From positions 62,994,001 through 63,058,000 of the forward strand of contig OZ076409.1 of assembly GCA_964187785.1 (NCBI GenBank): DNA of 64,000 nt, given 5' to 3'. The notes under the pieces were generated by a model, which ran no database searches, was not told the DNA's origin, and saw nothing but the letters and a program-made list of their open reading frames with translations. Position numbers and translations under genes: made by a program. Shown piece after piece: positions 27,701 through 60,142 of this stretch (its first letter is position 1; each line of letters opens with the position of its first letter). Source of the stretch: Amphiscolops sp. MND2022. Lineage: Eukaryota.

Positions 27701-29078
27701 ATTTTTCTGAAAATAATCAATGAGGAAACGTAGAAGCTTGCAATAACAAGCCTTCATTGTCGATATGGAAAAAATTTGAATAAAAATCGGTTTCTATACA
27801 CTTTGAGTTGCGGGCTTGAAATGAACCTTCGACTTGGAATCAATCAGATAATTCCTCTGATCGTTTTTTGAAAAGTAATTCCAAATTTATTCAGCATGTA
27901 AGATTTTGAGTTATACTATTCCGATGACTCCGAATGAACAAACTGCTGCACAAAACCAGAAAACTTTGTTTGAGTTTTTTCTCCCGATTGTCATGAAAGC
28001 TGGAAAGCGTTTTACTACAGAGGAGACGGAGGTTCGAATCTTATCTGTTTCGATGTTTCATTTATTTCCAAAGTCCGAAAACAGCACGCTATATCCGAGT
28101 TTTTGACGTTATACCCGAAGTAAATCGCGTTTTACTAAGGAGGATGTAGCTTCGGATATTATCAGTTTTGATGCTTCGTTTCCTTCCAAAATCGAAAGAA
28201 AAGCACACTATATCTGATTTTATTTGATCTTGAATCCGAAGTAGTTGAGGTTTCTGGTGCGAATGAAAGCAAAAAGTCTCTTAGGCCCAGAAATCCAAAA
28301 TTGCGAGTTTTCCGGAAGGGCCCTCCCTCCCTTTTAAATTTTAACAGTATTTGCTTTCTTCTGTTTTCTTTCTTCTGACAAGTAGTTTTCGAGACGATTT
28401 TGATAAACTTCAAAAACTTCCAACATTGCCCAAAAATACGAAATGATGAAATTGTTGATAATTCGATTCATTTCCAAAGCAAAAACTACAGTTGTAAGTC
28501 ATCAGAACACGATAACATTTTCCTTTGGAGATTTTTTCCACAATTGTCGATTTGAAGTTTTCAATGTTTTGGCCAACAATAATGTCTGTCCTTCACGTGC
28601 TCGCACTCCGCCGCAAGACACCAGTGACCACCAGGTGCAGGAATTTTGGTAGTTTAATCTCATTTCCACCGGTTACCACTGGTGGCCGACTGGAGACGAC
28701 AGGTGAAATGGTTTCAAAAAATTTCAAAACTGGCTTTGCTGATATGCTTGGCTTTTTGAACTTTACTTGTCGACGTTTCTTAGTTTTCATGGTATAGAAA
28801 CATTTAATCATTGGTTTCTAAAGATTTATTGTTCGTTTTTGAGAATTACTATAAAGACCCCGCTTGCATTAAATTCGCTTTTCAGCACCACTTGAAAGGT
28901 TGACTTTTGAGAAAAAAGGATTAGAGAGGTATTTGATGCAACAGTGAAACTTTTACCCAAAAACTTTCAAAAGAATCCCCCTTTGGTTTTTTGGTACTTT
29001 CAGTTTTAAAAAATGTTTTTAAGCCCAATTGGCTCCCTATAAATTTTGGAGTACTGTCGCACGCATGGGTGAAATTAG

Positions 29079-29084
29079 TTTATT
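29079..29084 (-). terminator. Predicted polyadenylation signal AATAAA in the 3' LTR
   Basis: The only minus-strand AATAAA I found in the LTR, about 25 nt from the LTR end. Confidence 0.5.
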
Positions 29085-29694
29085 AGTTTTAATCTGTCAA
29101 GTCCTTGTTTGCATTTTACAAGGTACTATCTCGCGACGGTTCTGTTATTGATTTATCAAGTATAAGTCCCAACAAATAAATTAGCAACTTACTGATAAAG
29201 GGGTGCCTTGCGTGTACGTGCGAACAAAAGAAATTGCGTGAGTCGCGCAAGGCGGTGTTTGTAAATGAGCTTCCCGTTTACTGAAAATGTATGGTGAATA
29301 AATATGTTTAATTACGAATGAGTTGAGAATATTGAAAGTGAACAATTTCTGGACATAGCAATATTTCCTTCAATTGTTACAAATCTCAGATTAATAAAGA
29401 TTACAACTTCACTTTACAAGAAGTAATATAACTTTTACAATTTATCATTTAAGAAAATGAAACTATTTACAAATAATAAGAATTTCCCTTTTTCTTCGGA
29501 AATCTTTTTCTCAAACAAAGATTACAAATCCGTACTATTTTAAACGGAAGAGTTTTGATTTAGATGTCTCTATTCAGTAGAAAGTTGAATAGCATTAAGA
29601 CTTTTTCATAATATGACACTTTAAAACTTCAATCATCCCTTTTCTTATGTGAGTTTATGTAATTTCAACCTCATAGAAATTTAGTTCTAATAAG

Positions 29695-29907
29695 AATAGT
29701 CTAAGCTAAAGTTTGGTCAACCGCAGAATTGAAATCAGCGGAAAATAATCTAAGGTAAGATTTTGTCAACCGCAGAATTGAAATCAGCGGAAAATAGTCT
29801 AAATTAAGATTTTGTCAACCGCAGAATTGAAATCAGCGGAAAATAGTCTAAGTTAAGGTTTTGGAAACCGCCGAGTTTAAATCAGCGGAAAATAGTCTAA
29901 GTTAAAG
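29695..29907. repeat. 49-bp tandem repeat (about 4.3 copies) inside the 3' LTR
   Basis: ccgc cores at 29721, 29770, 29819 and 29868 (period 49). Confidence 0.9.
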
Positions 29908-30684
29908 TCTCAGAGAGAATGAAATCTCTACTGAAAGGTCTAAATAGTCAGACTCACCAAACCGGAGACGAAATTGAAGAGAAATTTCTAAGTTAGAAAT
30001 TTCTTGTAAGGGAAGATTGGTTCTGGAAGTTGAAGTTAAATCAAGGATGAGTGGAGAAATATTCTAAGATGCAAGGGTATGATTAAAAGAGAATTATTGG
30101 ATCTGAGTTATTAAGCAAGAAGTTTTGTTGAGTTAAATAGCAATCGGAATTGAAAGTGAAGGCGAGAAATAGACTTTCTAAGTCTGAAGGGGAAGATAAT
30201 AGTAAAGGGAGAGGAAAGGGGGTAAAGTAAGAAAGAAGAGCAGGGGTGAGGGGAGAGAAGTGGAAGAGAAGTGAAGAGAAACGAGAGCTATTAAGTTTAA
30301 GCTCTGTCCGTTTCGATAAGTGTATGTGTGAATGAATCTCCTCGCCTGCGTTGGCCGTATATATACAGCCAAGCATTTCTTATCGTGCGCTGCGTAGCAG
30401 GCATGGCTTATCTTTCACCAATCATAGTTGGTTTCATATTTCAAATATACGCGGTATAATATAGAATTCTTCACTTGTGCAATTCCTTTCTCGTCACAGT
30501 ACTTCGTCATCATTATTACCATCGTTATGGCCGCCGCCTTATGACCGCCATCTTTATCTACAACTCTCTCTCCCATAAACAAACGTTAGTTCTAGTTCAT
30601 GTTTGTTTCTGTATTTGTTAGTTAAATATAGACTGCACTTTAGCACCTAATTATGTTTGTTAAAGCGTTAGTCATAACGCGACA

Positions 30685-30721: not shown

Positions 30722-31660
30722 TTATGGGTCAGACTGAAAGAAGGGGGAGTTATGTAGCGCGAGTGACTGAGGGGAAGGTTCCTTAAATTTGATTCTAAAT
30801 ATTATAGAGTCATTGTTTAGGAATGCTTCTCTGAAGTTGACAAGTAACTTCGTATGAGGGATGAAGTCTTCTTTGAGGAGGTTCGGGTGCGTGTAGAGAT
30901 TGTGAAGGGTATCTTCGTGGTTGTGGGGGTTGATTGGGAAAAGTGCGGACCACTTGTTGCCTTCGTCCTTCTGATCAAGGAATTCGACTTCTACTGTTTT
31001 ATCAAAGGGCCATGTTTGTGGGTGAGTGAAGTCGCTATAATGAAGTTCACAGCTAATAGAAGAGTGGGTCCCACGGAAGATGTTTATCCCGTAAGGGAAT
31101 ATTCTGAAGGAAATTTTGCAGCCTGATAGGTATGTTGGGTAAATAGGGCTCGCGAAGCTGTTTTTGATGTTGTGAAAGGGATCGTCTGGAGAGGTCCTTG
31201 CTTTTCGGTAAAGTGTGGAGAAGGCGGAAACTTGCCAAGTGATAAAATCTTTACCGTTCGCTTCAATCTGGCTCGCTCGGTTGAGGAGGGAGCTTTGGTG
31301 TTTGATTGTCGCTCGCAAATCGAAGATAGTGACTTCCAATTGTTGACGTTTATCTCGTGCCTCTTCGATTGAGGTACATAGCAGTTTGATTCGGTTTTCT
31401 AACTTCTTTTGGGGTTGATTAATGTCCGTTAAAGGGAAGGACTTTCGGAGCGGTGTGCTTTTTGTTCCCTGGTTATAGGTACTAGTTGATTTCTCCCATT
31501 CACTAATCCACATATTTAGTCTTTCCACTCCTTCGAGGTTTGCATGTTCTTCTTGATCGTTTTCTTCAGGCATAGGTGGCCAGTCGGGGTTAGGGATCGG
31601 TAGGTAGGGTTTGTGTTTTGGGATGAAGGGGGTGGCATTTGGGTTTAATTTTTGGCTCAT
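30722..31660 (-). CDS. PAM2 motif + coiled coil + TRAF-type MATH domain protein (312 aa), RING-less TRAF-like
   Basis: N-terminal KLNPNATPFIP matches PAM2; heptad region; ITWQV..F, SPIY..GCKISFRIFPYG..RGTHSSI, WPFDKTV..LDQ, FIPH..L and FLNNDSIIFR match TRAF-C motifs. Confidence 0.88.
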   Translation of the reverse strand: MSQKLNPNATPFIPKHKPYLPIPNPDWPPMPEENDQEEHANLEGVERLNMWISEWEKSTSTYNQGTKSTPLRKSFPLTDINQPQKKLENRIKLLCTSIEEARDKRQQLEVTIFDLRATIKHQSSLLNRASQIEANGKDFITWQVSAFSTLYRKARTSPDDPFHNIKNSFASPIYPTYLSGCKISFRIFPYGINIFRGTHSSISCELHYSDFTHPQTWPFDKTVEVEFLDQKDEGNKWSALFPINPHNHEDTLHNLYTHPNLLKEDFIPHTKLLVNFREAFLNNDSIIFRIKFKEPSPQSLALHNSPFFQSDP

Positions 31661-32238
31661 TGTGCAGATATGGATCTTAAGGGAACTGTCAGCCGCTGTC
31701 CCTTCAGTGCAGGGTTCTCAATAGTGTATTCTTGTCTTTTGTTGTCCCAAAAGACGATTTTCCAGGTTGAAAACTGTGGGAGTAGAGAATACTTTAGGTT
31801 TGCGTTAAACCTAGGTTTTTTAACGTATCTGGCTTTTCTAGTGAAGTATTCCCTTTTATGTTGCTTATGTAAGGGTGCTTCATCGGCTATCTCGTTGTTC
31901 CATTCATGATAGTGTTTTTGTGGTGTGTTTCTTCTGATGTCCTTTCCACCAAATCTAGGAGGATGTTGTGTTGACGGGATTGGTGGTATGTCTCCTGTGA
32001 ATGACAAAGGAAAGGGGAGTTGGTCGGATGGCGTTGGTGTGAAGGTTGGAGTTGGAGATTTTGAGGGTGATGATGGGACCGTTGAGTCAGGGGGGTCGGG
32101 AAGGAAGGTAATTGTTGTAGACGAGTCTGGTGTCAAAAAGTCTGAAGGAGATAGGGGTTCGATTTCTAGGTCACTTTCTGGGATAGGATCCAGGGTATCG
32201 TCGTCCAGGCTTGGTAGGTCGAATAGTGGTTCTAGATT
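31657..32238 (-). CDS. ATG-less ORF/exon (193 codons; acidic Pro/Ser/Thr-rich, then basic region), probably spliced to the env N-terminus
   Basis: The frame opens immediately after tttacttttAG (32239); it contains no ATG; its stop overlaps the next ATG (ATGA). Confidence 0.65.
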   Translation of the reverse strand, partial: NLEPLFDLPSLDDDTLDPIPESDLEIEPLSPSDFLTPDSSTTITFLPDPPDSTVPSSPSKSPTPTFTPTPSDQLPFPLSFTGDIPPIPSTQHPPRFGGKDIRRNTPQKHYHEWNNEIADEAPLHKQHKREYFTRKARYVKKPRFNANLKYSLLPQFSTWKIVFWDNKRQEYTIENPALKGQRLTVPLRSISAQ

Positions 32239-32284: not shown

Positions 32285-34432
32285 TTATATTGGAGCTACG
32301 AAGCTCTGTACTGAGGGATAAAGTGATTCTTCCTTATTCTTCAGTGCTTGGAGTTCTACTTCTTTTCCATTATCTTCAGTTTTCGCGTTTTTATCTTCAA
32401 CGCTATCCTCGTAAGGGGCCCGCGGGGTGAATACAGAAGTTAAAACTGAAGTAAAGAAAAGATTGTACGAAGCACTGAGCAATGTTTTAGTGAAGCTCAG
32501 TGTATTACCTGTGAGGTGACGAAGTTCAAAGTATCGGAAGACGAGTACCGTGATATCTATTACGAACTTAATGAAAAGAAAGGCGCCAAAATACGCGCCG
32601 CAGAGTTCTAGTACGTAAGATATACTTCCAAATGTTTCAAGGAACTGATTTTTGAAGTAATCGGGTGAGATCATGCCGTCAACATAAAAATCTGTACGGG
32701 GTGCATAATACGCGAAAGATTCAGGTCCACTATGGGCCATTGAGGGTGTGATGAGCTCACGTGAGAACTTCTGGAGGGCGTTGCGAGACGCTGCGCTGAT
32801 GAGGATGTTGTCCCAAAATTCTGAGAGTTGTTTAGGCGTATACATTCCCGCGTCTTGTGAACCAGGGAAGGATCTAGTAATCATTGGTTGTATGTCTTTG
32901 GGTCCGAAGATAGCAGGTCGGTCGCGATGTTCGGGTGAAGGAGTGAGGGTAAACCAGGAGTCTTTGTCTTCCATATCCAATTGAAAGAGGTTCTTAATGC
33001 GATCGCTGCAATTTTGGGCGTTCGCGTTAGGATAGGTCTGTCGGGTGATTGGGTCCACGAAGGCAACCACTCCTTTGTAGAAGATGGGTATGCGGTCGTA
33101 GCATCGGTTCATCGTGTGAAGAGGTGAGTGGGATTCCGGGCAGTGGTAGAGCCAAGCGAGGCTGCCATCTGTGTTCAGGAACATTGAGCGATTTCCCGTG
33201 AGCATGTATCCGGCGAGGCGAGGATTTTCCACTGATAGCATCAAAATAGTAAGGATTTGAGTTCTTTCTTGTTCGCATTGTGCTTTGAGGAGCTGGATTT
33301 CTGAAGCTTCGAGGAGACGAGTGCTCTCAAAGAAGAGATAATCAAGCTTTGTCCCTTGGTGTAACTCGTAATCCATGTTGAGGTAATGAGGTGTATTAGG
33401 GTTGGGGTCGCTCGGGCCTCGAAAGAGGTGGAGTCGGCCATTACCAGAACCATCTTCGGGTGAATAATATTGTAGTTTAGATGTCTCTCCCATGGAGATG
33501 CCGAGTCGTCTGCCGGACGTCATGTCGAAGCCACCAAGTTGGATTGAAACGTACAGGGATTCGTAGTTGGTCGGGTATACATCGTCTGGTTTGTTGCAAT
33601 ACTTTTGTGGTCTGTTGTAGACTTCGAATAAAAATTTGGTAGTGGAGTCGTTGCCGCTTACGATATAGTAGTTAGATCCGTGTTTGATCATGTTCACGAT
33701 TTCTTTCCTATGTACTGCAAGCACGCAATTATCGGGTTCCGCCCATGTGTAGGCGTATGGGTCCAGTGACGTCGTTTCGCAACCTAGTTGTTCTAAGGGG
33801 CAGGGAAGGACCATCTGAAACGGAGTCAGGACTTTTCCATCTCGAGTTTTTACTGATAATTCAGCATCTTGGATGTGAGATTCGAATGTTTCTCTTTTGA
33901 TCCAGCCACCTGTCTTGCATTCATTTCGGGTATCTGGGTCGCGTACACCGTCCCAACCCTTTCCGTATTTGGCGTTTCTCGTCTGTACTTGTTTCACTCC
34001 TTTCTTAAATTTGAGGGGTTGTCCATGGATTATGACTTCTTTGCCTTCACCCATTGCCTTGCAGGTTTCGGGTGACAGGGAAAGATCGCTGGTGATTCCG
34101 TCGTGTAGGATTGACATACTGGAGTGGTCGTGATAACCACAATGCCATTCTTCACTCTGATGTTTCACACGGCACATAGTGGCGTTGATAGTGCGGCGGA
34201 AATGTTTAGTGTATAACGTTACGCTCGCACGACTTACCTCTAAGTTTTCAGGTGCCACATTGCATTGTTCAACTTGATTCAATGCGTAGAGTTTATTTTG
34301 GGTCATTTCGCCGCAGTCGAAATGAGTTACTCGCAGTTTTTTAGCAACGCTAGCGAGGTTTGGCGTTGGACGTTGTAATATCACAACGGGCGCGTAATGG
34401 GCGCATAAAAAGAGTAAGTAAAATAATTTCAT
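32285..34432 (-). CDS. env: Env-like fusion glycoprotein (715 aa), chuvirus/Jingchuvirales glycoprotein-like
   Basis: N-terminal signal peptide; Cys pattern HFDC..ALNQVEQC..CRVK..WHCGYHDH..PETC; C-terminal transmembrane segment (CGAYFGAFLFIKFVIDITVLVF); splice acceptor TTTCAG 2 nt before the ATG. Confidence 0.85.
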   Translation of the reverse strand: MKLFYLLFLCAHYAPVVILQRPTPNLASVAKKLRVTHFDCGEMTQNKLYALNQVEQCNVAPENLEVSRASVTLYTKHFRRTINATMCRVKHQSEEWHCGYHDHSSMSILHDGITSDLSLSPETCKAMGEGKEVIIHGQPLKFKKGVKQVQTRNAKYGKGWDGVRDPDTRNECKTGGWIKRETFESHIQDAELSVKTRDGKVLTPFQMVLPCPLEQLGCETTSLDPYAYTWAEPDNCVLAVHRKEIVNMIKHGSNYYIVSGNDSTTKFLFEVYNRPQKYCNKPDDVYPTNYESLYVSIQLGGFDMTSGRRLGISMGETSKLQYYSPEDGSGNGRLHLFRGPSDPNPNTPHYLNMDYELHQGTKLDYLFFESTRLLEASEIQLLKAQCEQERTQILTILMLSVENPRLAGYMLTGNRSMFLNTDGSLAWLYHCPESHSPLHTMNRCYDRIPIFYKGVVAFVDPITRQTYPNANAQNCSDRIKNLFQLDMEDKDSWFTLTPSPEHRDRPAIFGPKDIQPMITRSFPGSQDAGMYTPKQLSEFWDNILISAASRNALQKFSRELITPSMAHSGPESFAYYAPRTDFYVDGMISPDYFKNQFLETFGSISYVLELCGAYFGAFLFIKFVIDITVLVFRYFELRHLTGNTLSFTKTLLSASYNLFFTSVLTSVFTPRAPYEDSVEDKNAKTEDNGKEVELQALKNKEESLYPSVQSFVAPI

Positions 34433-34500
34433 TTCTGAAATTCTTCAGTCTTTGACAATCAATCAGGAAAAATGTTTTTTATAGATATGTGGATCCACGG

Positions 34501-34934
34501 TAAGGCCGTAAAAAGGCAAGCCGTAATATCAAACCGGCAGCTTAGCTGGCACGACACTAAGCGGAGGTTAAAATTTTATAGTAGTAACCTCACTACTATT
34601 GGAAAGTGCCTTATGGAAAGATTGTTGTTTTTTGTTTAAAGTATAGGTTTCGGAGTAAGGCCGTAAAAAGGCAAGCCGTAATATCAAACCGGCAGCTTAG
34701 CTGGTACAACACTAAGCGGAGGTTAAAATTTTATAGTAGTAACCTCACTACTGTTCACACGTACCTAAGAGAAGGAGAAGTTTATTTGTCTTTTAGTTTA
34801 GTTTAATGTTATGGATCCTGAAATAAGGCCGTAAAAAGGCAAGCCGTAATATCAAACCGGCAGCTTAGCTGGCACGACACTAAGCGGAGGTTAAAATTTT
34901 ATAGTAGTAACCTCACTACTATTCAAAGAGTGCC
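34501..34934. ncRNA. Three tandem copies of a 97-nt structured RNA motif (cores 34501-34597, 34656-34752, 34824-34920)
   Basis: Near-identical cores separated by divergent linkers; three hairpins, an H-type pseudoknot and a covarying loop-to-flank pairing. Confidence 0.7.
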
Positions 34935-34980: not shown

Positions 34981-35325
34981 TCAGCTGTAGTTATCACTGA
35001 TTGATTTTAGACTGGGAGAGTGTTTGTTACGTCTCTGGGCGTCGAGGAAATCGATTAACTTGCTGAGGAGATGAAGGGTCAGAGGGTGAACGTGATCTAA
35101 GTAAGCGATCTCCCTGTAGTCGGTTAGCGCCTTCGCAAGATCTGCTGCTTCTGTCGAGTCTGTGGCGACAGGGATGAGCCAATGTCCCGTTTGATGTGGT
35201 CGGAGGCTGTGGAGTTCAATCTGAAGTGCGGGGGCGCTCTCTTTCCAGGCTATAGAGAGGATCTCAAGAAGTGTGTTTGTTTCCGGGTGACGCCAGAGAA
35301 ATTTGAGTTGTATTTTAAACATCAT
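34981..35325 (-). CDS. Accessory ORF D (114 aa), small-protein family
   Basis: ATGATG start overlaps the last codons of ORF C; motif pattern shared with A and C. Confidence 0.7.
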   Translation of the reverse strand: MMFKIQLKFLWRHPETNTLLEILSIAWKESAPALQIELHSLRPHQTGHWLIPVATDSTEAADLAKALTDYREIAYLDHVHPLTLHLLSKLIDFLDAQRRNKHSPSLKSISDNYS

Positions 35326-35710: not shown

Positions 35711-35931
35711 TAAAGGACTGACTTGGCTCTTGTGAAGACTTCGGTAGGTGTGTTATTATATAGTAGACTCTCCAGTAGTGGGTAGATAGGTGATGCTGGC
35801 ACACACGTGTAGGTTTCACTCTCTTCTTCTGCGATTGCGTAGGCTTGTATGATTATGTTCGGTGTTGAGGGTTCCTTCTGAATATCAGTTATCTGGGAAA
35901 GTCGGTTGTCAATTTTGAATATTATGATCAT
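35710..35931 (-). CDS. Accessory ORF B (73 aa), small-protein family
   Basis: Start overlaps the stop of a 14-codon uORF (ATGA); stop overlaps the ORF C start (TAATG). Confidence 0.6.
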   Translation of the reverse strand: MIIIFKIDNRLSQITDIQKEPSTPNIIIQAYAIAEEESETYTCVPASPIYPLLESLLYNNTPTEVFTRAKSVL

Positions 35932-37427: not shown

Positions 37428-38246
37428 TTATTCTTTGTAACCAATTCTAGTCCTTTCACGAAGTATGGACTGTCGTGCTGGTTGATTGGGTTGTGCTCGC
37501 TGATAACGTGGATTTCTCTCTATTTGGCGGGCAACAGCCTTTCGTAACTCTTGCAAGGGAGTCGTTGACTTGGTAGACGATGCCGGGGTGTTAGTTGGGG
37601 GTGCTGGAGTTGGTTGACGTTGAGTTAACGTCAGGATAGGGGTTGCTGCGTTTTGAAGAGGTGATGTCGAAGGCTGATCGGGAGTCTTGGGAGTTGACAA
37701 CAACTGATTTTCTGGAGAGATGATACCAGAGTCTGTGCTCTGGGGGGTTTGCGTTCTTTTGCGGGCAAGTATTTGGTTTTGTTGATTCCGTACTGGCAAT
37801 ATGCAGAGGTCTCCGAGTTTTTGTGGTTCTGAAACATTAAGTTGTTCAATTCTTCCTTTGACAAGATTGTTATAAAAATCCGTGTCTCCACGGTGGGGAG
37901 TAGTGTATTCTTCGATAAGAGGGGGGAGTGTTTCTTCTTTAGGAAAGTATTCTATTAGATGGTTCCTATGTACAGTTCGGAGATTCTCGGGGTTTTGATC
38001 TTCCATTATTTGGTAAGTTGTATTTGTAATTCGTTTGGTAACCGTAAAGGGTCCTAGTCGCAGTTGTTGGAGTTTTTGGCTTTTGGAGAGGTCTTTTCGA
38101 TGGTTCTCTAGCAGAACCTTTTGTCCAATGTTGAGGTGGTTCCCAAGTTTAAATCTGTTCCTGTAGGCGTGTGATTGAGCTGTTTGTTTTCTGCACTTTT
38201 CATATGTGGATGAGTAGACCTTTTTGAAGGCTGTTTCTCGTTCCAA
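37428..38246 (-). CDS. Integrase C-terminal region (GPY/F motif) plus Pro/Thr-rich tail, split from pol by a 1-nt frameshift near 38250
   Basis: IGQKVLL...LGPFTVTKRITNTTYQI...TVHRNHL is the typical gypsy integrase C-terminus; it overlaps the end of the pol ORF in the -1 frame. Confidence 0.88.
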   Translation of the reverse strand: MERETAFKKVYSSTYEKCRKQTAQSHAYRNRFKLGNHLNIGQKVLLENHRKDLSKSQKLQQLRLGPFTVTKRITNTTYQIMEDQNPENLRTVHRNHLIEYFPKEETLPPLIEEYTTPHRGDTDFYNNLVKGRIEQLNVSEPQKLGDLCILPVRNQQNQILARKRTQTPQSTDSGIISPENQLLSTPKTPDQPSTSPLQNAATPILTLTQRQPTPAPPTNTPASSTKSTTPLQELRKAVARQIERNPRYQRAQPNQPARQSILRERTRIGYKE

Positions 38247-41200
38247 TAAGTTTGTGATAGTTGTGGTCGTAATAGTCCATTTAGTAGTTCGTTTTTGACT
38301 TGGTTTTCGCTATGGCAATGAGGAGGTAATCCTTGACAGAATTGTGATTTGCAGTTCTTGTTTTTGTTCCTGTAGAGTCCCAGCTTCAGACTCATAGGTA
38401 TCTGTGGTTTATTGCAAAACACTATCTCGTAGGGGGTCTTTCCAGTCGTGTAGTTGACGCTTGTGTTGTGGGCGAATGCAAATTTGGCAGCTAGTTGGGC
38501 CCAGTTGTTTCCTGATTCGTTTAGGAAGTTTCTCCAGTATCTTGCAATGTGTTGATTTTGAGTTTCTACTTTGCCATTTGTCCAGGGTGAGTGTGCGGTT
38601 CTTGGTCGAAGTGTAATGCCAAACTCTTTAGTCCAATTGACGAATTCAGTGTTCACGAAAGCTGTTCCTCTATCATGTACGATAGATTGAGGGATGCCAT
38701 AGTGCATAATCCATTTTTCCATCGCATTGATTGTAGATTGTGCTCCTGTGTCTCTGACTGGGTATGCCATCAGGTAACGTGAGAAGGCGTCGATGATCAG
38801 AAGGCAATGTGAATTTCCACGACTGGGAGGATTGAGTGGTCCTTTGTGATCAATGTGGATGGTTCTGAATACTTGAGTTTCGGTTTCGCAGTCTTCCAGT
38901 GGGACTTCGTTGTTTCTCCGTTGTTTGGATTTGTTAGATTGGCAGCTAACACAATCTTGTGTGAGGGCACAGATCCAGTTGTGCATCCCTGGCCAGTAGT
39001 AAAATCTCTTAGCATTGAGGAAGGTCTTTTCTGCTCCCATGTGGCCGCCGAGGTCGTTGTAATGTCCCATACGAAAGCAAGCTAAAAATAGAGAGAGAGG
39101 TAGACAGATTCTCAGATTCTCGTCTGTTGGGTCATCAGTTGGCTCGTTATAACAAAGGAGGTTTCCTTGGCCTTCTATAGATAATCTGTCGAATTCCTGA
39201 AAGTAACGCATGAGGCCTTTTGAGTGTTGTAACTCTGGTGATTTTGGTTCGGGTTTGTTTCCTGTTCTTACCCATTGTCGGACCACGCTGAGTACCGGGT
39301 CATTTATTTGTTCTTGTAAGATCGTTGTAACGTTTAGTTCTACTTCTTTGGATAGTTTATCAAGTTGTCTGACAAGTTCCTGTGTTGGTGTCTTTTGTTT
39401 TTCAGTTGAATTTGTAGGTAGATCGAGGTGTTCTATTGCCTTCGCGTTTTTGGGAAGACTTGGGTTACGTGCGATGGGATCTTCTGTGTTGAGCTCGTAG
39501 TTGGTCTCGTTTATTTCTTGACTCTGATTGTCTGTGAGGGCTTCGTCATCCGTATCACTGTTGATGGAGCTGTAAGTGTTTTGTGATAAATCCGAAGTGC
39601 TATCCCGTGTTCCTGACCTGATTCTTAGTTCTTCGAATTTTCCAAGTTCTCTTCCAGCGTCGAGGCAACTCTGTGCTGACTCTACTTTCGGCAGGTTAGG
39701 TTCCTCGTAGATAGAGTTAACTGTGAAGTTATTCCCATCATTTTGGAGATGAAGTACTTTCCGTTTTTTTCCCTTCTCGTACAAGATGGGGTAAAAGTCG
39801 TTCTTGGATGTCTCTTCATTTTCTTCGTGTTTGATTTTGTAGTGTACTTGGGTTCCATGTTCGTCGAAAAAGTGTATGTCAGTTGGGATGACTTTGTGAC
39901 TGAGTTGATGTTTCTTGTGTTCCTCGATGGAGACGTTTCGACTGAGTATATCAGGGAAGGCTAGGTTGCTTCCTGGAGTCCAAATTATCTTGAGATTCGG
40001 GAATTTAGATATAATTACTTGGTACCTGAAAAAACGGGGTGAAATTTGTCCCTTTCTTCCCCAGAGATAAAGAATCGGCTTGTGATCGCAGTATAGGTAG
40101 ATGGGGAAGGGAGATCCGATGATGTAGTGTTCATACGTCTGAAGAGCTGAGACTATGCCACATAATTCTCTGTGTAGTGTGGACATCTTTTGTTCTTCCT
40201 TTGCGAAAACTCTTGAGTTGAAGGAAATGATCCGTTTCCCTTCTGGGAATTGTTGGATGAGGATACATCCTGTCCCAACGTTTGACGAGTCGACGTGTAT
40301 GTGAAAGGGGTATTTTGTCGAGGGTATTGCGAGCACTGTGTCTTCGGTAATTTTTTTCTTTATTTCCTGGAAAAGGTCTTCGTGTTCTTGGTTCCAGCAA
40401 AAATTTGTATCTTTCTTGGTGAGTTCGTAAAAAGGTCGACTATCGACATGAAGATTCTTGATGTAGCAGCTATAGAAGCCCAAAGCTCCTAAGAAGCTTT
40501 TCACTTCGGTTTTGGTCTTTGGTGATTTGAGATTGTGTAGGTCTTTTACTCGTTTTGCGACGGGTTGTATTCCTTCGGCTGCTATCACGTGTCCCAAAAA
40601 CTTGACTTTCCTTAAGAAGAAGAGTGTCTTATCTGGTGCTGCCTTGAGTCCGGCTTTCCGCAGTAAGTTATGGTATTCTTGAATTACCGTGAACATTTCT
40701 TGTTTGTTTTTGGCTTGCATCAACGTGTCGTCGATGTATGTAATTGCCTGTTTCCTTTTGATGAGGGGTTCGAAGTGGATAGTCATCATTCTGCTAAAGA
40801 AGCTTGGTAATCCCTTGAGTCCATAGAATCCCCTGGTGAAGGTGTATTGTTTTCCGCCAATGATGAAGCTGGTGAGTTTTTGCGTGGGCTCGTCTAATGG
40901 GACTTGGTGAAATGCACAGGAGAGATCACTTACTGAGAAGATGTTTCCATTTATTAGTGTCATTATGGTTTGGATCGGTTCTAAGGGCCAGGAATAATTT
41001 GTTAGATCTGTCACCGAGTTTAGATATCTCGCATCTATGATCAGCTTGACATAGTCATGTTTTGGTTGTAGTATAATAGGATTCACAAATAAGGATCCCA
41101 TTTCTTCATCGTCGCCCATTTCTCTGATGATATCAGCGTCTTTGAGTTGTGTGAGTAGCTTCTCTAGCTTTTCTCGTAGGTGAAGTGGTACTTTGCTGGG

Positions 41201-42937
41201 TCTCTGTCTCTTTAGAATTGCTCCAGGTTCTAGTTTAATGTTAAATTTTTGTCTGGTTTTCCCTACGTCAAATTTGTGTTGGGAGTATACATCTCTTGCG
41301 TCCATTAGTAAGTCTATTAGGAGAACCAGTTCTTCGTCTGTGAGGTCTGAGTAGCGAAAGTCGAATTCTTTAATGTATCGCACTGCTTCTTTATTTTGAT
41401 ACTGAAGGTAGTACTCGATCAGTCGTTCGTTGTCTTCTTTTGGCCTGAAGATTTTAAATTGCTCATCGCAGGGTGGTTGACAGGACTTTGCGTCGCTTGT
41501 GAAGTCTGTCTCCAGCTCTCTATGTTTGAGATGAAATTGCTCGGAAAATTGTTGTATCTCATCTTCTAGTACGTATTCGGGGTCTCCTCTTGTAGTCATG
41601 GCATAGACATCTAGTTCGTTTCTTGTATAAATTCGGAGTTGTATTTCTGAGTATGCAAATACGTCTTGAATGAGTTGAGTGACGTCTTGCCATTGGAAGT
41701 CTTCTAGCTCTGAGGCTTCCCGTAGCATGGATATAGTTTTGATGCCGCTCATTTTGGCGTGTGCTTTTAGAGTTTCGAGAGATTGAACTAGTAATTGTGG
41801 GTCAATCTTGTCTTTTGATTTTGCTTTCGTAATCAGAACATATATAAATCGTTTCAGAGTTTCGTCCCAGTAGGGTATGGTTTCTCCTTTCTGTGGTTTC
41901 TGTTTTGCGCATGTATCCTTAAGTGAAGGTATTTTCGTTAGGATTTCTTTTGAGAAGCCTTTGGCTGGCTTTAGGTCGGCCGGGACGAAGATGATGATAG
42001 GGTCTGGTCTGCTGAGTATTGTTTTCGAGTTTCCTCCTTCTATTCTGAGGCAATCGTTCATATCTTGTGAAGGAATGGTAGAGTGTAATAGGAAACAGTC
42101 GTTGTATTCTTCGTTTTCGTTTAGGATAGCATATGCGAGTTCTGTCGGGTTTCTAATTTGGTATTTCGGAATTTCTTGGTCTAATACGTCAAGCATTGAG
42201 TATCCGATAGTTCCTTTTACTAAGGTGATTGTATGGTTTTTGTTGTTTTCCATGACGATTGGTAAAGTCTTCTCAAATCGTGTACAGAGGACATTTATGA
42301 AGTTAAGTCCAGTAGAAACTGCCTTCCTGTTCGGTAGGAACGTAGATCCAGGAGGAAATGAGTTATTAGTGTTTTCCGGTGCGAATTTGTAACATCTTGT
42401 CGTCTTTGGTTCGATATACATTGAGTGAGGAATTCGGACTGAGAGAATTTGTGATAGATAGGGGTAACATTTGTTGAGTTGTAGGCTACCATAGCAAAAA
42501 GTATTTATAGGTCTTTTGAGTTCTATGCCAGGAAGATCAAAGTGTATTTTGTTAACTTGTTCTTGGCAGAAATTCATTCCAAGGAGGTTTTGGGTTTTCA
42601 TCTCTGTTATCCAGACTGTTAATGGGAAGTTATGTTGTCCATCGGAATCGTAGTAGAGTTTGAGGGTGATGTATCCCATCATAGGGATGATCTGCCCAGA
42701 GTAATTCCGTGTTGTGTTATTGCTTCTACTAAGTTCTAGGTCTTGTTGAAACTGGCAAAGTTCTCTAAAGGTCCTGTAGTTGATGATTGAAGATGTTGCC
42801 CCAGTGTCTAGTAGAAATTCGATTTCTAAGCCACTATCTTTTTGTGAGTCTCCGGCAGCAAAATAATAAAGATTAAGACTAAATTTTAGAGGGGCACTGC
42901 TGCTATTTCTATTTTTCGGAGACCTTAGTAGTTTAAA
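38108..42937 (-). CDS. pol: Pol polyprotein: aspartic protease, macrodomain, RT, RNase H, integrase (entered by frameshift)
   Basis: FLLDTGA (upstream of the listed ATG) and LLGMNF protease; DLSCAFHQV, FYGLKG and YIDD RT; IHVDSS, HRELCGI and YCDHKPI RNase H; H-H-C-C (GHY..GGH..CVSC) and IHIDH / IVHDRG / NGKVE integrase. Confidence 0.96.
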   Translation of the reverse strand, partial: FKLLRSPKNRNSSSAPLKFSLNLYYFAAGDSQKDSGLEIEFLLDTGATSSIINYRTFRELCQFQQDLELSRSNNTTRNYSGQIIPMMGYITLKLYYDSDGQHNFPLTVWITEMKTQNLLGMNFCQEQVNKIHFDLPGIELKRPINTFCYGSLQLNKCYPYLSQILSVRIPHSMYIEPKTTRCYKFAPENTNNSFPPGSTFLPNRKAVSTGLNFINVLCTRFEKTLPIVMENNKNHTITLVKGTIGYSMLDVLDQEIPKYQIRNPTELAYAILNENEEYNDCFLLHSTIPSQDMNDCLRIEGGNSKTILSRPDPIIIFVPADLKPAKGFSKEILTKIPSLKDTCAKQKPQKGETIPYWDETLKRFIYVLITKAKSKDKIDPQLLVQSLETLKAHAKMSGIKTISMLREASELEDFQWQDVTQLIQDVFAYSEIQLRIYTRNELDVYAMTTRGDPEYVLEDEIQQFSEQFHLKHRELETDFTSDAKSCQPPCDEQFKIFRPKEDNERLIEYYLQYQNKEAVRYIKEFDFRYSDLTDEELVLLIDLLMDARDVYSQHKFDVGKTRQKFNIKLEPGAILKRQRPSKVPLHLREKLEKLLTQLKDADIIREMGDDEEMGSLFVNPIILQPKHDYVKLIIDARYLNSVTDLTNYSWPLEPIQTIMTLINGNIFSVSDLSCAFHQVPLDEPTQKLTSFIIGGKQYTFTRGFYGLKGLPSFFSRMMTIHFEPLIKRKQAITYIDDTLMQAKNKQEMFTVIQEYHNLLRKAGLKAAPDKTLFFLRKVKFLGHVIAAEGIQPVAKRVKDLHNLKSPKTKTEVKSFLGALGFYSCYIKNLHVDSRPFYELTKKDTNFCWNQEHEDLFQEIKKKITEDTVLAIPSTKYPFHIHVDSSNVGTGCILIQQFPEGKRIISFNSRVFAKEEQKMSTLHRELCGIVSALQTYEHYIIGSPFPIYLYCDHKPILYLWGRKGQISPRFFRYQVIISKFPNLKIIWTPGSNLAFPDILSRNVSIEEHKKHQLSHKVIPTDIHFFDEHGTQVHYKIKHEENEETSKNDFYPILYEKGKKRKVLHLQNDGNNFTVNSIYEEPNLPKVESAQSCLDAGRELGKFEELRIRSGTRDSTSDLSQNTYSSINSDTDDEALTDNQSQEINETNYELNTEDPIARNPSLPKNAKAIEHLDLPTNSTEKQKTPTQELVRQLDKLSKEVELNVTTILQEQINDPVLSVVRQWVRTGNKPEPKSPELQHSKGLMRYFQEFDRLSIEGQGNLLCYNEPTDDPTDENLRICLPLSLFLACFRMGHYNDLGGHMGAEKTFLNAKRFYYWPGMHNWICALTQDCVSCQSNKSKQRRNNEVPLEDCETETQVFRTIHIDHKGPLNPPSRGNSHCLLIIDAFSRYLMAYPVRDTGAQSTINAMEKWIMHYGIPQSIVHDRGTAFVNTEFVNWTKEFGITLRPRTAHSPWTNGKVETQNQHIARYWRNFLNESGNNWAQLAAKFAFAHNTSVNYTTGKTPYEIVFCNKPQIPMSLKLGLYRNKNKNCKSQFCQGLPPHCHSENQVKNELLNGLLRPQLSQTYWNEKQPSKRSTHPHMKSAENKQLNHTPTGTDLNLGTTSTLDKRFC
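42847..42937 (-). promoter_or_regulatory. Programmed -1 ribosomal frameshift signal (U UUA AAC + downstream stem)
   Basis: TTTAAAC at 42937-42931 is in the gag frame, one codon before the gag stop. The -1 frame is open through FLLDTGA into pol. Stems GGTCTCCG/CGGAGACT and GCAGCA/TGCTGC begin 6 nt downstream. Confidence 0.88.
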
Positions 42938-44379
42938 GGGCGGAAATCGGCAATAGAGTTCACCGAGTAGTCGGTTTCTAAGAACTGTACTGTGTTGGAT
43001 CTTCCTATGTCATTAGTTTTTGGGAATCTTTGCTCGTAAGATTGAGTTGGAGTGTTGGGTCTTTCGTTTCTGTCTAGTGGTCTTTGAAAAACTGAGTTAT
43101 TTCTTGGTGGAAGAGGTTGTATGTTGCGATTAAAGGAGCTAGACTGGTCTCTGTTGAAGTTGAACGGAGATCTTGCTCTTTGGGGTCCAGGGGAAACACT
43201 TCTGGAGTTGTTAGAATTGTTTAGGAAGGGTCTTCTCCCTTCTTGTGAAAATCTTTGGTTACCAGGATTGACTCTTGTATTCGTAGGTCGGCGTTCTGGG
43301 TTGAAATTTTTTCTTTGTGGTCTATCGTATTGATTCCAGGCAGGGTTTGACTGCATAGCTCCAGCCAGTGCTAGTTGATGTGCCACAGCCATATGTTTTC
43401 TGATTTCTGAATCTGGTAATCTTGGTTGAAATCTAGAGCCATGTTCAGGTCCAGTTCTCTTGTTGTAGTCGTTGGTGAATGTTATTCTTCTTTCTGGGTT
43501 AGCTTCGTTTTGAACCTTCTTCACTTCTTCATCTCTCATCTTCTTTCTGCACCAGTTAGGTGTGTGTCCATTTGTTCGGCAGTAGCCACAGAATCGTGTG
43601 GCCATTCTTCGACCTGTAGCATTAGGGTCTACAGTTTTCTCTACTGCGTTGATTGTGTTATTCATCTGTTCTTTGATTTGTAGTTTGATTCCCTTCAGGT
43701 CGTCTCGCATTTCTTGTATGAGTGGGTCTGAATGTGATTCTCCGCCAGTTAGGGCGGTAGTTACCGTGTAGGAGAGATCTTTGTTTATTATAGCTTGGGA
43801 GAATTGTTCCCAGGTTGCATTCGGGTGATCCATTAAATATTCGTGTGCCTTTTCTCTCAGTTTTGGAGGTCTTAGGCCTCTCAGTGAGTAGTCGATGCAC
43901 CTTTGTCTTCTTTGTCGGTCTTGTGCTGCTCTTTCTGCGTTTCTGTCGTTTTGTGCGACGCCGGCAAGATCATCTGGCCAGCCTTTCCCCACAACAATTT
44001 TGATTCTGTGTAGAAAATTCTTTATCTCTTCTCCATCTCTTCTGGTGACATGTTCTGCTTCCATTCTGTGTCTGAATTTATTTCGGCCATCTGCGAATCT
44101 TGTGATGAACCTTTCTCTGATTTCTTGCCAGGTGTTAGCGTCTGTGATACTTGTCTCGAACCACTCCGCTGCTGGTCCTCTTAGTAGTGTAGCAAAGTAG
44201 GATTTTCTCCTGAAGTTGTAGTCGTCAAGTGCTGCTCCGTTTGCTGGGGTATCACCATGAGAGAAACGGAACTTCTTTTCAATTAGCTGTATAAATTGTT
44301 CAGGATCTTGATCTGGGTCTGTTCCCGTGAATTGGTCTCTGCCGAGGTCTGGATAAGCCAAGTAATTTTGCGCAGCCAT
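42925..44379 (-). CDS. gag: Gag (484 aa) with capsid-like region and CCHC zinc knuckle
   Basis: LLRGPAAEWF...TWQEIRERFITRF capsid-like motif; CGYCRTNGHTPNWC = C-X2-C-X4-H-X4-C; first long ORF after the PBS. Confidence 0.93.
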   Translation of the reverse strand: MAAQNYLAYPDLGRDQFTGTDPDQDPEQFIQLIEKKFRFSHGDTPANGAALDDYNFRRKSYFATLLRGPAAEWFETSITDANTWQEIRERFITRFADGRNKFRHRMEAEHVTRRDGEEIKNFLHRIKIVVGKGWPDDLAGVAQNDRNAERAAQDRQRRQRCIDYSLRGLRPPKLREKAHEYLMDHPNATWEQFSQAIINKDLSYTVTTALTGGESHSDPLIQEMRDDLKGIKLQIKEQMNNTINAVEKTVDPNATGRRMATRFCGYCRTNGHTPNWCRKKMRDEEVKKVQNEANPERRITFTNDYNKRTGPEHGSRFQPRLPDSEIRKHMAVAHQLALAGAMQSNPAWNQYDRPQRKNFNPERRPTNTRVNPGNQRFSQEGRRPFLNNSNNSRSVSPGPQRARSPFNFNRDQSSSFNRNIQPLPPRNNSVFQRPLDRNERPNTPTQSYEQRFPKTNDIGRSNTVQFLETDYSVNSIADFRPLNY

Positions 44380-45395: not shown

Positions 45396-45413
45396 GCCTC
45401 ACTGGTCGCACCA
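45396..45413 (-). promoter_or_regulatory. Primer-binding site of element 1 (TGGTGCGACCAGTGAGGC)
   Basis: Starts with TGG 3 nt after the 5' LTR. Its complement GCCTCAC-TGGTCGC-A-CCA has tRNA 3'-end architecture (T-stem CTCAC as in tRNA-Met(e) or Ile-UAU). The tRNA identity is unresolved. Confidence 0.85.
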
Positions 45414-46055
45414 GTTTGTCGCACGCATGGGTGAAATTAGTTTATTAGTTTTAATCTGTCAAGTCCTTGTTTGCATTTTACAAGGTACTATCTCGCGACG
45501 GTTCTGTTATTGATTTATCAAGTATAAGTCCCAACAAATAAATTAGCAACTTACTGATAAAGGGGTGCCTTGCGTGTACGTGCGAACAAAAGAAATTGCG
45601 TGAGTCGCGCAAGGCGGTGTTTGTAAATGAGCTTCCCGTTTACTGAAAATGTATGGTGAATAAATATGTTTAATTACGAATGAGTTGAGAATATTGAAAG
45701 TGAACAATTTCTGGACATAGCAATATTTCCTTCAATTGTTACAAATCTCAGATTAATAAAGATTACAACTTCACTTTACAAGAAGTAATATAACTTTTAC
45801 AATTTATCATTTAAGAAAATGAAACTATTTACAAATAATAAGAATTTCCCTTTTTCTTCGGAAATCTTTTTCTCAAACAAAGATTACAAATCCGTACTAT
45901 TTTAAACGGAAGAGTTTTGATTTAGATGTCTCTATTCAGTAGAAAGTTGAATAGCATTAAGACTTTTCATAATATGACACTTTAAAACTTCAATCATCCC
46001 TTTTCTTATGTGAGTTTATGTAATTTCAACCTCATAGAAATTTAGTTCTAATAAG

Positions 46056-46268
46056 AATAGTCTAAGCTAAAGTTTGGTCAACCGCAGAATTGAAATCAGC
46101 GGAAAATAATCTAAGGTAAGATTTTGTCAACCGCAGAATTGAAATCAGCGGAAAATAGTCTAAATTAAGATTTTGTCAACCGCAGAATTGAAATCAGCGG
46201 AAAATAGTCTAAGTTAAGGTTTTGGAAACCGCCGAGTTTAAATCAGCGGAAAATAGTCTAAGTTAAAG
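46056..46268. repeat. 49-bp tandem repeat (about 4.3 copies) inside the 5' LTR
   Basis: Unit ...aaccgcagaattgaaatcagcggaaaatagtctaa... with period 49. Confidence 0.9.
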
Positions 46269-46690
46269 TCTCAGAGAGAATGAAATCTCTACTGAAAGGT
46301 CTAAATAGTCAGACTCACCAAACCGGAGACGAAATTGAAGAGAAATTTCTAAGTTAGAAATTTCTTGTAAGGGAAGATTGGTTCTGGAAGTTGAAGTTAA
46401 ATCAAGGATGAGTGGAGAAATATTCTAAGATGCAAGGGTATGATTAAAAGAGAATTATTGGATCTGAGTTATTAAGCAAGAAGTTTTGTTGAGTTAAATA
46501 GCAATCGGAATTGAAAGTGAAGGCGAGAAATAGACTTTCTAAGTCTGAAGGGGAAGATAATAGTAAAGGGAGAGGAAAGGGGGTAAAGTAAGAAAGAAGA
46601 GCAGGGGTGAGGGGAGAGAAGTGGAAGAGAAGTGAAGAGAAACGAGAGCTATTAAGTTTAAGCTCTGTCCGTTTCGATAAGTGTATGTGT

Positions 46691-46726
46691 GAATGAATCT
46701 CCTCGCCTGCGTTGGCCGTATATATA
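46691..46726 (-). promoter_or_regulatory. Predicted LTR core promoter: TATA box + initiator
   Basis: TATATATA (46726-46719) lies about 30 nt upstream of an Inr-consensus TCATTC (A at 46694) on the minus strand. Confidence 0.6.
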
Positions 46727-49700
46727 CAGCCAAGCATTTCTTATCGTGCGCTGCGTAGCAGGCATGGCTTATCTTTCACCAATCATAGTTGGTTTCATAT
46801 TTCAAATATACGCGGTATAATATAGAATTCTTCACTTGTGCAATTCCTTTCTCGTCACAGTACTTCGTCATCATTATTACCATCGTTATGGCCGCCGCCT
46901 TATGACCGCCATCTTTATCTACAACTCTCTCTCCCATAAACAAACGTTAGTTCTAGTTCATGTTTGTTTCTGTATTTGTTAGTTAAATATAGACTGCACT
47001 TTAGCACCTAATTATGTTTGTTAAAGCGTTAGTCATAACGCGACAGTACATTTGCTCTTTTTGAGCCTTAGGCAGGTCGCCGACTCATGCCGTTCCCGGC
47101 TTGTTTTGTAGTTTAAGATTCATAAAGACGCCGACTTATGCGGTTCTCGGCTTGTTTCATAATTTAAGGTTCCCAAAGACTAGAGACATTTTACTTCGCT
47201 GGCAGAAAATTTCAAAGTGCAAGATTTTTAATGTTCGTTTGACCGAAAAGTCTCAGAAGCCTAAATTTCTAAATATTCTATGTAAATTGAAATCTTATTT
47301 TCCGTTTCGCAATGAATCAAAAAACGCAAAAACTAATATATTTTGGATTTTCGGGAGATCTTTGTATAGTTACTCATGCACTATAGTTAACAAGGAAAAA
47401 TCTCATCTAATGCTTGCATATTGATGGTCTAAATTCCCTAATTCAGCACCTAATTCACCGAGTTATCTGACATATGGTTTAAGAAAACAGCATTTTGGGA
47501 CTACTTAAGTGAAGCTGGCTCAGTTCTTAATACAATCCCAGAGCAAAATGTCTTGAAACTCTTGTATAGATCTTACATATTCTCATATACTATTGAAAGC
47601 GTTGATAAGATCTTGCTTCACACAGATCTCTTGACTTTTATGAAATGAATTTTGGTAAGAGTTTCATCAAGAGTGGCAAGAAAATAAATAACTTACGGAA
47701 CAACCAATAGTTTTGTTTACAATTACACTGCTATTGCTCGAAGTACCATCTTCACTATCACAAGGTTTTGAAATTTAGGATCGATTTATTATTGAAATAA
47801 AGCTCGACTAACAGAGGGTTCGTGTGTCGTTTTGTACTTCATCAATTTTTTTGATTTTCTCAATCTGGTCGACGTGACCGTAAATTGTTTAAAATACGAC
47901 GAAAACGATTCAAAGGGTTCTCCTTCTTTCTTTTCATGCAATGTACAACATTTTCTGAATTTTTGATTTCTCCAAAAATGTTTTTTTACTTTTTGACAAC
48001 TTCAGCCCGAAAGTTGTTTTTCAAGACTGTGAGACTATTGTCATCAGCCTTCCAGCATATTTGAGGATAATATAGCCAAAAAAACTCTTCTAGTTTTTGT
48101 TCCTCAACGTAAGATTGTCTTTAACCGGGGCGTCGACAAACCAAAGTTGAGTTTGAAAAACAAGATAGGATCGCTTCATTCAGAATTTTCCAATGATGAG
48201 TGCAAACATAATCTTTGCCAGTCTAGAATATGATTTTCGTGTTTAAGAATTGGTTCCCATTTTACAATGACGTAGTTTAGGTTTATTAACGACTGAAAAT
48301 ACGACAGGATAAATTTGAAAATTCGGCAACGAATAATCCAGGAAACGTAGCTATTATATCGTTCATCTTCGAAGACGCCATCATTCATCTTCATCCTGAA
48401 AGTTTCATCGCCGTCATGAAATGAAAAACTGGCTGGTTATTTTTTTCTATTCTTAATCTTCTAATCTTTCTAAATCTTAATCTCTTTTCTCTTTTTGTCG
48501 AGGACTCTTTCCAGAAAGTTTTAGGAATCAGTCTGAAGATGAGAGTTTGAAGGCCCAGGAGACCAATTCCTTTGTTCCATCTGCTGCCTAGCAGTACAAA
48601 GTGGCTTCACATCTTGCAAAAGAGTAGTGATGAATCTGCACCTTTTTAGAACTAATGTAACCTAGAATGATTTGGATATATTGCAATTTCATTACCGAGT
48701 TTTTTGGCCTTGAAAACTATAAAAAACAATGTAGTGTAAAATTTTTTCGATAGATTGCCCACATATAACATTATCAGTTATAACTTGAGCTGGGTTAGCG
48801 TTTTCGAAAGTAAAAGTCAAAAAATGTTTGTATCAAAATTATATTTGCCGTCCTCCTCAACACTTTTCGTTAAATAAATAGAACCAGTGAAAGTAACAAT
48901 TGTCAGTCTATGAGCCTCAAAATCAAAAAGGCTGCACTAAAAATATTTTCGACACTTTGTGCGGAAATAATTTCGATAAAACTTCCCGCTGAGTTTTTGA
49001 AAATTTTTTGTTCCCGTTGGATTATTTTCTCACGTTCTCTGTGATACATTGTTGCTGATAGGAGGTGTCTTGTTTTGTTTCTTTCTACATACAGAATACA
49101 ACAAATATTGCAAAGACACCGCGCTTGTTTCAAGTTTTGTCGGAATGTAAGTGCTTGACGTCCTACTCTTGGCGTTGATTTTTTCGCGGGCGTAAATTTC
49201 AACTGGAGTGCAGGCTTATTTGATACACCCCACTGTTGGAAAACTTTGGAACAAATCATGCATATGGTTACTTGCCTGGGCAAACCTAACCCAAATTAAA
49301 ACAACAATCTTCTATTTCAGACAAAATATGAGGACCGCCTTTTTACATTGCAGGAAAACACTTGCTAAGACTTGATATCTTATGTTTGTCAAAAATGCTC
49401 GGTCAAGTTGTTTTGGAAAAAATCGACCCAATTTGTGAGTTTGCCAAGTTCGGTATATTTCATCCGTAACAAAAAACGTAATACCAATAGTTTCCAGTTC
49501 ATTCATGCATGAAAAAACCTTTTTTCCAGAAGTTTGTGCAAAAAGGTACGATTAGCAAGTGTCTTTGGCAAAATGCTTTGGTTTTTGGATAAGCGAGCGA
49601 ATTAATTGCAGTAGTGAGATTATTTATTCATACAAACGCACGTATCTTTGCGAAAATTGTCTCGCTAACTGTTCCTTATCGAATGCTTGCTCCGCTACCG

Positions 49701-60141: not shown

Positions 60142-60142
60142 C

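Follow-up and report, generated by a model that had tools for sequence, protein, structure and literature searches.

A TRAF-like protein with an N-terminal PAM2 motif, probably taken from the host, in an env-carrying LTR retroelement of Amphiscolops sp.

The 3'-most gene of an env-carrying LTR element codes for a TRAF-like protein that starts with a PAM2 motif. The element was found in a stretch of 64,000 nucleotides, here called the window, and the ORF (30722..31660, minus strand; 312 aa, intronless) ends with a stop 37 nt from the 3' LTR. Judged from the comparison of copies, the motif is a real feature under selection at the amino acid level, and the N-terminus that carries it is quite probably able to bind the MLLE domain. 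The ORF is likely a gene taken from the host, and its product likely acts on mRNA tails and not on immune receptors. As a fuller explanation, which we consider plausible but short of probable, the retroelement would have made a captured TRAF into a regulator of RNA fate: a PAM2 motif was added, the receptor groove was lost, and the trimer grips the poly(A)-binding protein (PABP) by three hooks.

The element, its families and its 3' genes

The element is about 18 kb long, is of the gag-pol-env, Ty3/gypsy type and lies on the minus strand. Its genes follow 5' to 3' in the order gag, pol (PR-RT-RH-IN), several small ORFs, env, ORF-U and the TRAF-like ORF. The two LTRs (3' LTR 29055..30684, 1630 nt; 5' LTR 45417..47045, both minus strand) have the ends TG...CA, are 99.9% identical with one gap between them, and are flanked on both sides by the target site duplication GTAC, at 29051-29054 and 47046-47049. 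Both contain 49-nt tandem repeats (29554-29951 and 45915-46312), the number of which varies between families. The primer-binding site (45397..45413, minus strand) comes after the 5' LTR and is common to families A-E. The gag gene (42925..44379, minus strand) matched Retrotrans_gag with 25.4 bits, and its end is overlapped by pol (38108..43009, minus strand; PR-RT-RNase H-IN), which in the window copy has a frame break near the end of the integrase when compared with sibling copies. The env gene (32285..34432, minus strand) codes for a Monjiviricetes-type fusion glycoprotein (PF24664, 113.7 bits). The set of LTRs, primer-binding site, gag, pol with the domain order above and a separate env is what env-bearing Ty3/gypsy elements (errantiviruses) have; the RT comparison was among families A-E alone. 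The element is an env-carrying retrotransposon which has been spreading recently. The proposal of the preliminary description that an LTR element has captured a TRAF-like gene is supported.

A genome search with the TRAF-like ORF gave at least 127 matches (the best 127 scored of 499 candidates), among them 21 copies that are full-length, unbroken and at least 96% identical. The lineage with PAM2 comprises the subfamilies A, B (about 57% identity) and C (31-33%). The Pfam search of the genome added at least 150 further matches (the best 150 scored of 440 candidates); 30 of these were retrieved, of which 28 belonged to families D and E and two were host genes. Families D and E are present in many copies and have the same order of env, ORF-U and MATH, without PAM2. 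The RT-RNase H identity among families A-E was 78-98%. The viral contigs that were scanned contained no relative. Derivatives with internal deletions, apparently non-autonomous (L044-L048), occur in many copies and keep the LTRs and, of MATH, only the last third.

ORF-U (31657..32238, minus strand; 193 aa) has an acidic, Pro-rich N-terminus and a conserved basic C-terminal domain, in which 24 columns are invariant across families A-E. In subfamilies A-C it lacks an ATG and is preceded by a conserved pyrimidine-rich AG acceptor, and in all three its TGA overlaps the start of the TRAF-like ORF as ATGA. From the acceptor, the missing ATG and the overlap together we infer a spliced RNA with coupled stop-start translation, from which the TRAF-like protein would be expressed along with U. 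Pfam and Atlas searches gave no match for ORF-U, and structure comparison gave weak matches to SH3-like barrels (Z up to 3.8). Its layout we take to resemble that of a viral transactivator.

Just 5' of env there are three copies of a structured RNA of about 100 nt (34500-34600, 34655-34755 and 34823-34923, minus strand), which is also found at the loci L123, L126, L114 and L050 and is retained in the non-autonomous derivatives L044 and L045. The repeats are 85-90% identical between A and C despite saturated synonymous sites, with compensatory changes in 6 of 22 predicted pairs, and the 5' part permits an H-type pseudoknot to be drawn, with two hairpins after it. As searched, they are absent from families D and E. 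Candidate functions are an export element, an IRES, a nuclease-resistant RNA or a ribozyme. The Rfam search of the element at E up to 0.5 gave no match; a single weak one (E 6.6) lay near the repeat region, and a tRNA gene search of the 64-kb window found none. Four small ORFs between pol and env (34981-35964 and 37034-37420, minus strand) are kept in A, B and C (46-100%) and were undetected in D and E. An antisense ORF inside the element (36173-36868, plus strand; 231 aa) has matches in B (62%) and C (36%), and none in Pfam. Pol contains an insert between protease and RT (about 41600-42050, minus strand), without a Pfam match, which by eye may resemble a TARG1-type macro domain. A second LTR element, at about 55000-62000, carries an ORF (57483-58124) with a weak Macro match (E 0.085).

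The TRAF-like protein and its PAM2 motif

The protein, which begins with MSQKLNPNATPFIP, passed two Pfam cut-offs, that of MATH_2 (32) with 35.3 bits and that of TRAF-mep_MATH (27.4) with 32.4 bits. An AlphaFold2 model, built on a 44-row alignment, consists of a disordered N-terminus, a helix at residues 36-63, a second helix at 81-134 and a beta-sandwich at 139-293. The best Foldseek matches of the model were TRAF domains (E 3e-11), and structure alignment gave Z 15.5 for TRAF4 (rmsd 3.3 over 144 residues), spanning both the coiled coil and TRAF-C, and Z 13.9 for SPOP. The first helix (31472..31555, minus strand) is amphipathic, with a conserved L-x-x-W-I-x-E, and is duplicated in subfamily C. 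The second is a predicted coiled coil (31259..31420, minus strand) with 9 of 15 a/d positions hydrophobic and pLDDT 83-97 over residues 81-120; as in TRAF domains, this TRAF-N coiled coil stands directly 5' of the TRAF-C/MATH beta-sandwich (30782..31246, minus strand). Neither RING nor zinc finger was detected by Pfam or as a Cys/His pattern, and the N-terminal RING and zinc fingers of the E3 ligases TRAF2-6 are thus missing from the ORF. The architecture given in the preliminary description, an N-terminal PAM2, a coiled coil and MATH with no RING or zinc fingers, is confirmed. Since TRAF domains trimerise via coiled coil and TRAF-C (PMC6125299), the product is predicted by analogy to form a TRAF-type trimer.

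Receptor binding by TRAFs is described as three hot spots on strands 3, 4, 6 and 7 (PMC6125299). The hydrophobic pocket, serine finger and polar pocket by which TRAF1/2/3/5 bind receptors were not recovered here, in an alignment that is loose in the receptor-groove loop (model pLDDT below 50 at residues 245-257). In A, B and C the segments SSxSFQRP and SGCP are replaced, the Arg is kept and Tyr is changed to Phe; the window copy has its serine finger/FxRP and GCP replaced and retains R186, and the strand-3 Arg is retained in A and B. Strand 7 carries a conserved acidic (K/R/D)(E/D)DFI. The "full" TRAF-C/MATH domain claimed earlier is complete in length, but its beta6-beta7 receptor groove is eroded.

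The PAM2 motif occupies residues 3-14 (QKLNPNATPFIP; 31619..31654, minus strand). PAM2 is defined by a hydrophobic residue at position 3, N/S at 4, P/V at 5, invariant A7 and F10 and a usual P12, with positions 6 and 8 solvent-exposed and 11 unconserved (PMC2854688). The protein has L3, N4, P5, A7, F10 and P12, all within a region without secondary structure (residues 1-35, pLDDT mostly below 50). Against the preferred reading we counted that position 9 is Pro, where Glu is the preferred residue, and that the score for Pfam PF07145 reaches the cut-off of 20 at best, with 16.1 bits for residues 2-14 and 19.5 (20.3 including neighbours) in the genome scan. A low Pfam score, together with sister families that do without PAM2, is what would be seen if the N-terminus were Pro/Asn-rich by chance and did not bind MLLE. 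We find this hardly credible, as the published pattern occurred in 54 of 100,000 shuffles of the protein and in just 4 of 100,000 within the first 20 residues, and the contact positions are fixed across subfamilies whose synonymous sites are saturated. In the window as a whole, the pattern occurs once, among 127,996 six-frame residues.

Conservation was followed in 57 distinct copies from the best-scoring matches, 53 of them with an N-terminus. The full PAM2 was present in 50 of the 53, over three subfamilies (31-100% identical); L3, N4 and A7 were found in every copy and P5, F10 and P12 each in 52, and the variable positions 6, 8 and 11 had five, five and three different residues, respectively. 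Between A and B, pS in the motif was 0.57-0.64 and pN 0.04-0.15; for the next 21 codons, the adjacent linker, pN was 0.32-0.45. The low pN against freely varying synonymous sites argues for constraint on the protein, and the check that had been set earlier, conservation of PAM2 among sibling copies, is thus answered in favour of the motif. Overlapping constraint at the nucleotide level was rejected, since the synonymous sites of PAM2 vary. Genome-wide, PF07145 had 46 matches, and of the 41 assigned by coordinates 39 lie in element copies and two in host-type PAM2 exons.

The rest of the ORF is likewise conserved. Among A and B the whole ORF is under purifying selection (dN/dS 0.15-0.21; 0.15-0.18 between the two subfamilies), and MATH is its largest conserved part (dN/dS 0.11-0.18; in the A-B comparison 0.14-0.18, with 65% identity). 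Positive selection as the cause of divergence was rejected, because dS is high, and dN/dS does not exceed 0.61 in the linker and remains below 0.35 in both MATH and the coiled coil. Within family A, 20 copies compared with the window copy showed 18 synonymous and 40 non-synonymous distinct changes, near the neutral expectation.

Two kinds of host MLLE were found in the genome, one PABP-type with the signature GRITGMLLE (L081) and one UBR5-like, followed by HECT (L082). Complex prediction with the N-terminal 35 residues and host MLLE, made without alignments by a method unproven on peptides, gave a score of 0.29 against a mark of 0.34 and speaks neither for nor against binding. MLLE is known to occur in UBR5 (PMC2854688), and the real target of the motif could be this UBR5-like MLLE, which we also counted against the preferred reading. 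PAM2 would then bring in UBR5/HYD, a HECT ligase of the host, as a substitute for a RING, with the trimer as an adaptor for ubiquitination of MATH-bound substrates; MATH domains serve as E3 substrate receptors, as the SPOP matches recall, and the domain here is under purifying selection. Yet PABP is normally far commoner in cells and is the usual partner of PAM2 proteins, and the MATH domain is without an assigned ligand, so we hold recruitment of UBR5 to be unlikely.

Binding to PABP is the reading we prefer. In the whole mechanism, which we put forward tentatively, the captured TRAF-like accessory protein binds PABP on poly(A) as a PAM2 trimer and displaces host PAM2 factors. The trimer would present its three N-terminal motifs to PABP MLLE domains arrayed on poly(A), and MATH would be the trimer cap, binding a new ligand via its remodelled acidic groove and no TNF-receptor tail. 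Single PAM2 motifs bind at 1-4 micromolar and compete with one another (PMC2854688), so an avid trimer would likely displace the weaker single motifs of PAN3, Tob, eRF3 or ataxin-2. Competition of PAM2 proteins for MLLE regulates deadenylation (PMC2854688), a role proposed also for LARP4, in which PAM2 accounts for just part of the tail protection (PMC5626478). The net effect would be that the element's own polyadenylated RNA is protected or redirected. Besides the partial role of PAM2 in LARP4, some points weigh against this mechanism. The sequence gives no direction of effect, protection versus decay; the conservation of MATH may exceed what a trimer cap needs, which implies a second ligand; and families D and E have spread to many copies without PAM2, so the motif is unnecessary for the success of the cassette. 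Decay would be the outcome of a bridge like Tob, in which PAM2 holds PABP, a complex for decay or repression is brought in by the Trp-rich helix 36-63 or by the MATH groove, and the output of host or late element mRNA falls. Tob and PAN3 do bring deadenylases via PAM2 (PMC2854688), and the amphipathic Trp helix is conserved in A and B and occurs twice in C. The helix, however, matches no known effector-binding motif and the likeness is one of resemblance only, and we regard such a bridge as very unlikely.

Probable host donor, proposed decoy function and possible exchange of the 3' cassette

A host TRAF-like gene on C3 (L127), with close relatives in other assemblies, contains introns, and four GT-AG exons were seen. 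It codes in order for the last zinc finger, an FPLxNLKxxQYLH helix, a coiled coil and MATH. The profile of the FPL helix scored 68 bits in D, 40 in F and 52 in P0027, a related element lineage not found in this genome; canonical TRAFs scored below 10 bits and A/B/C below 5, with KSFP(L/I) alone remaining. By its likeness to the host gene, the KSFPL before the coiled coil of the window copy is a remnant of the donor's FPL helix. In a 53-row MATH tree the element families and the host L127 subfamily stood on one side of a branch with support 98/90 and 24 other TRAF-type rows on the opposite side, and the P0027 group was sister to A/B/C (98/96). AU tests on a 31-row tree, with 22 rows of the larger set left out, left three hypotheses unrejected: A/B/C together with canonical TRAFs (p 0.53), one capture for all LTR families (p 0.34) and a single clade of A-E (p 0.17). 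Neither the donor of A/B/C nor how many captures there were can therefore be settled from the tree alone. The tree with host TRAFs, suggested in the preliminary description, thus joins the L127 subfamily to the elements but leaves A/B/C free to go with the canonical TRAFs. On sequence grounds, capture of D and P0027 from the L127 subfamily is well supported, and shared gene position and kinship point to the same donor for A/B/C.

Motif and tblastn scans of 60 kb upstream found no 5' exons of the donor gene, and two of its relatives start just before the last zinc finger, which suggests that the donor itself may already be RING-less. That a RING-less product must act as a dominant negative, as had been argued, therefore does not follow. 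At L133 and L141 (C10, about 42.09 Mb) the host has a canonical TRAF, whose exons include RING-like and zf-TRAF ones; it holds the single zf-TRAF match of the genome search. The host TRAF-like gene also occurs in many dispersed copies as family F, of which 24 loci were retrieved (L145-L168); the copies end at a host intron position, and none of the 24 has PAM2 or env nearby. Family F may stem from a second capture, by an element of another kind, or from an expansion of the gene.

None of the 14 host-type rows has PAM2, nor have the donor exons that were seen. P0027 also begins with PAM2, its MATH is sister to that of A/B/C, and in P0051 the start of env is joined to MATH of the P0027 kind; these observations suggest that PAM2 likely predates the split of the A/B/C and P0027 lineages. 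FxRP or FxKP persists in the host gene as well as in families D, E and F, and A, B and C have lost FxRP. As at least one member of the P0027 group (P0031) keeps FxRP, the groove was likely lost later than PAM2 was gained.

The groove and the donor bear on the earlier proposal of a decoy of TNFR, TLR or NF-kB signalling. Such a protein would mix into the trimers of the host TRAF-like gene or occupy receptor and adaptor tails, damping innate or death signalling, and PAM2 would only position it. The donor FPL helix is retained in D, F and P0027 (40-68 bits), D, E and F retain CFxRP or FxRP, R186 is still there, the genome has 8 TIR matches, and iridovirus-encoded TRAFs act on death signalling (PMC3352826). 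In A/B/C, however, the donor helix is below 5 bits and the groove motifs are gone, and the genome search gave no match for either the NF-kB RHD domain or TNFR_c6, with 13 matches in the T-box control; this does not prove absence, but the two blanks give an NF-kB decoy no support. The proposal is weakened by the replaced serine finger/FxRP and GCP and by these blanks, the TIR matches notwithstanding, and a decoy, which we find rather doubtful as the explanation here, fits families D and E better. Of the two options offered in the preliminary description, the adaptor to PABP and mRNPs fits better than the receptor decoy.

The dS of the TRAF-like ORF is 1.7-2.1, near saturation, and that of ORF-U is likewise far above that of gag, pol and env, which for the same pairs is 0.5-0.85. 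The excess suggests that the 3' cassette, ORF-U with the TRAF-like ORF, has been exchanged between lineages.

Known systems and meaning of the fusion

TRAF or MATH domains in LTR elements are known. MATH_TRAF_C has been described in the planarian Burro/GYPSM1, giant gypsy-like LTR elements whose env resembles that of mononegaviruses; in one species the domain sits in an accessory ORF of its own (PMC6431247). In Burro, MATH is part of a giant gag-env-pol polyprotein, which has BIR, BCL2 and ankyrin motifs, or lies upstream of it, and PAM2 is unmentioned in the available text (PMC6431247). In the present element gag, pol and env are separate ORFs, and not a single giant one with env placed in frame between the other two; the order is gag-pol-env-U-MATH, and MATH, which has an eroded groove and is joined to PAM2, stands at the 3' end. 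The gB-type errantiviruses are similarly multi-copy gag-pol-env Ty3/gypsy elements of invertebrates (PMC13524379); TRAF or MATH is absent from the text and seven supplements of that survey that were searched, and an accessory cassette is undescribed there (PMC13524379). The megalocytivirus TRAF, ISKNV ORF111L, is virus-encoded and has coiled coil and MATH (PMC3352826), and TRAFs of this kind were the top matches in the viral structure library (E 3e-9; 19-20% identity). It differs in belonging to a DNA virus, keeping a RING, binding TRADD and promoting apoptosis, with PAM2 undescribed in the available text (PMC3352826).

Cellular TRAF1-6, above all the RING-less TRAF1, share the coiled coil and TRAF-C fold (Z about 15; PMC6125299); the protein described here differs from them by loss of the hot-spot 2 serines, the following Phe and the strand-7 GCP, by its N-terminal PAM2 and by being element-borne. 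With eRF3, Paip2, ataxin-2, Tob, PAN3 and LARP4 it shares the 12-residue motif with L3, N4, P5, A7, F10 and P12 in a disordered terminus (PMC2854688, PMC5626478). Those are host proteins, none found fused to MATH, whereas three motifs per trimer are predicted here. Our literature searches, with subscription journals and Repbase outside their scope, found no work that combines PAM2, MATH domain and TRAF, and among the matches listed, judged partly by title, no virus- or retroelement-encoded PAM2 was evident. What was called an unfamiliar fusion is accordingly so for PAM2 but not for TRAF/MATH in LTR elements, as Burro illustrates (PMC6431247): TRAF/MATH capture by LTR elements and viral TRAFs were already known, and the PAM2-MATH fusion and an element-encoded PAM2 were not found in the literature searches.

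Descriptions of invertebrate retroelements usually stop at gag-pol-(env). Here we see a clade with a 3' accessory cassette, spliced by inference, that seems to have been traded among lineages, and in one of these a captured signalling adaptor has apparently been redirected to the poly(A)/PABP machinery. The steps form a traceable series, from the intron-containing host gene through PAM2-less copies with an intact groove and PAM2 copies with an intact groove to PAM2 copies with the groove lost. If true, this is a PAM2 mimic encoded by a retrovirus-like element, for which the PAM2-less sister families and the host donor are natural controls. If the binding holds, it would be a new retroelement route to mRNA stability and translation, and the protein would offer a natural multivalent MLLE competitor for studies of how PABP is shared among PAM2 factors.
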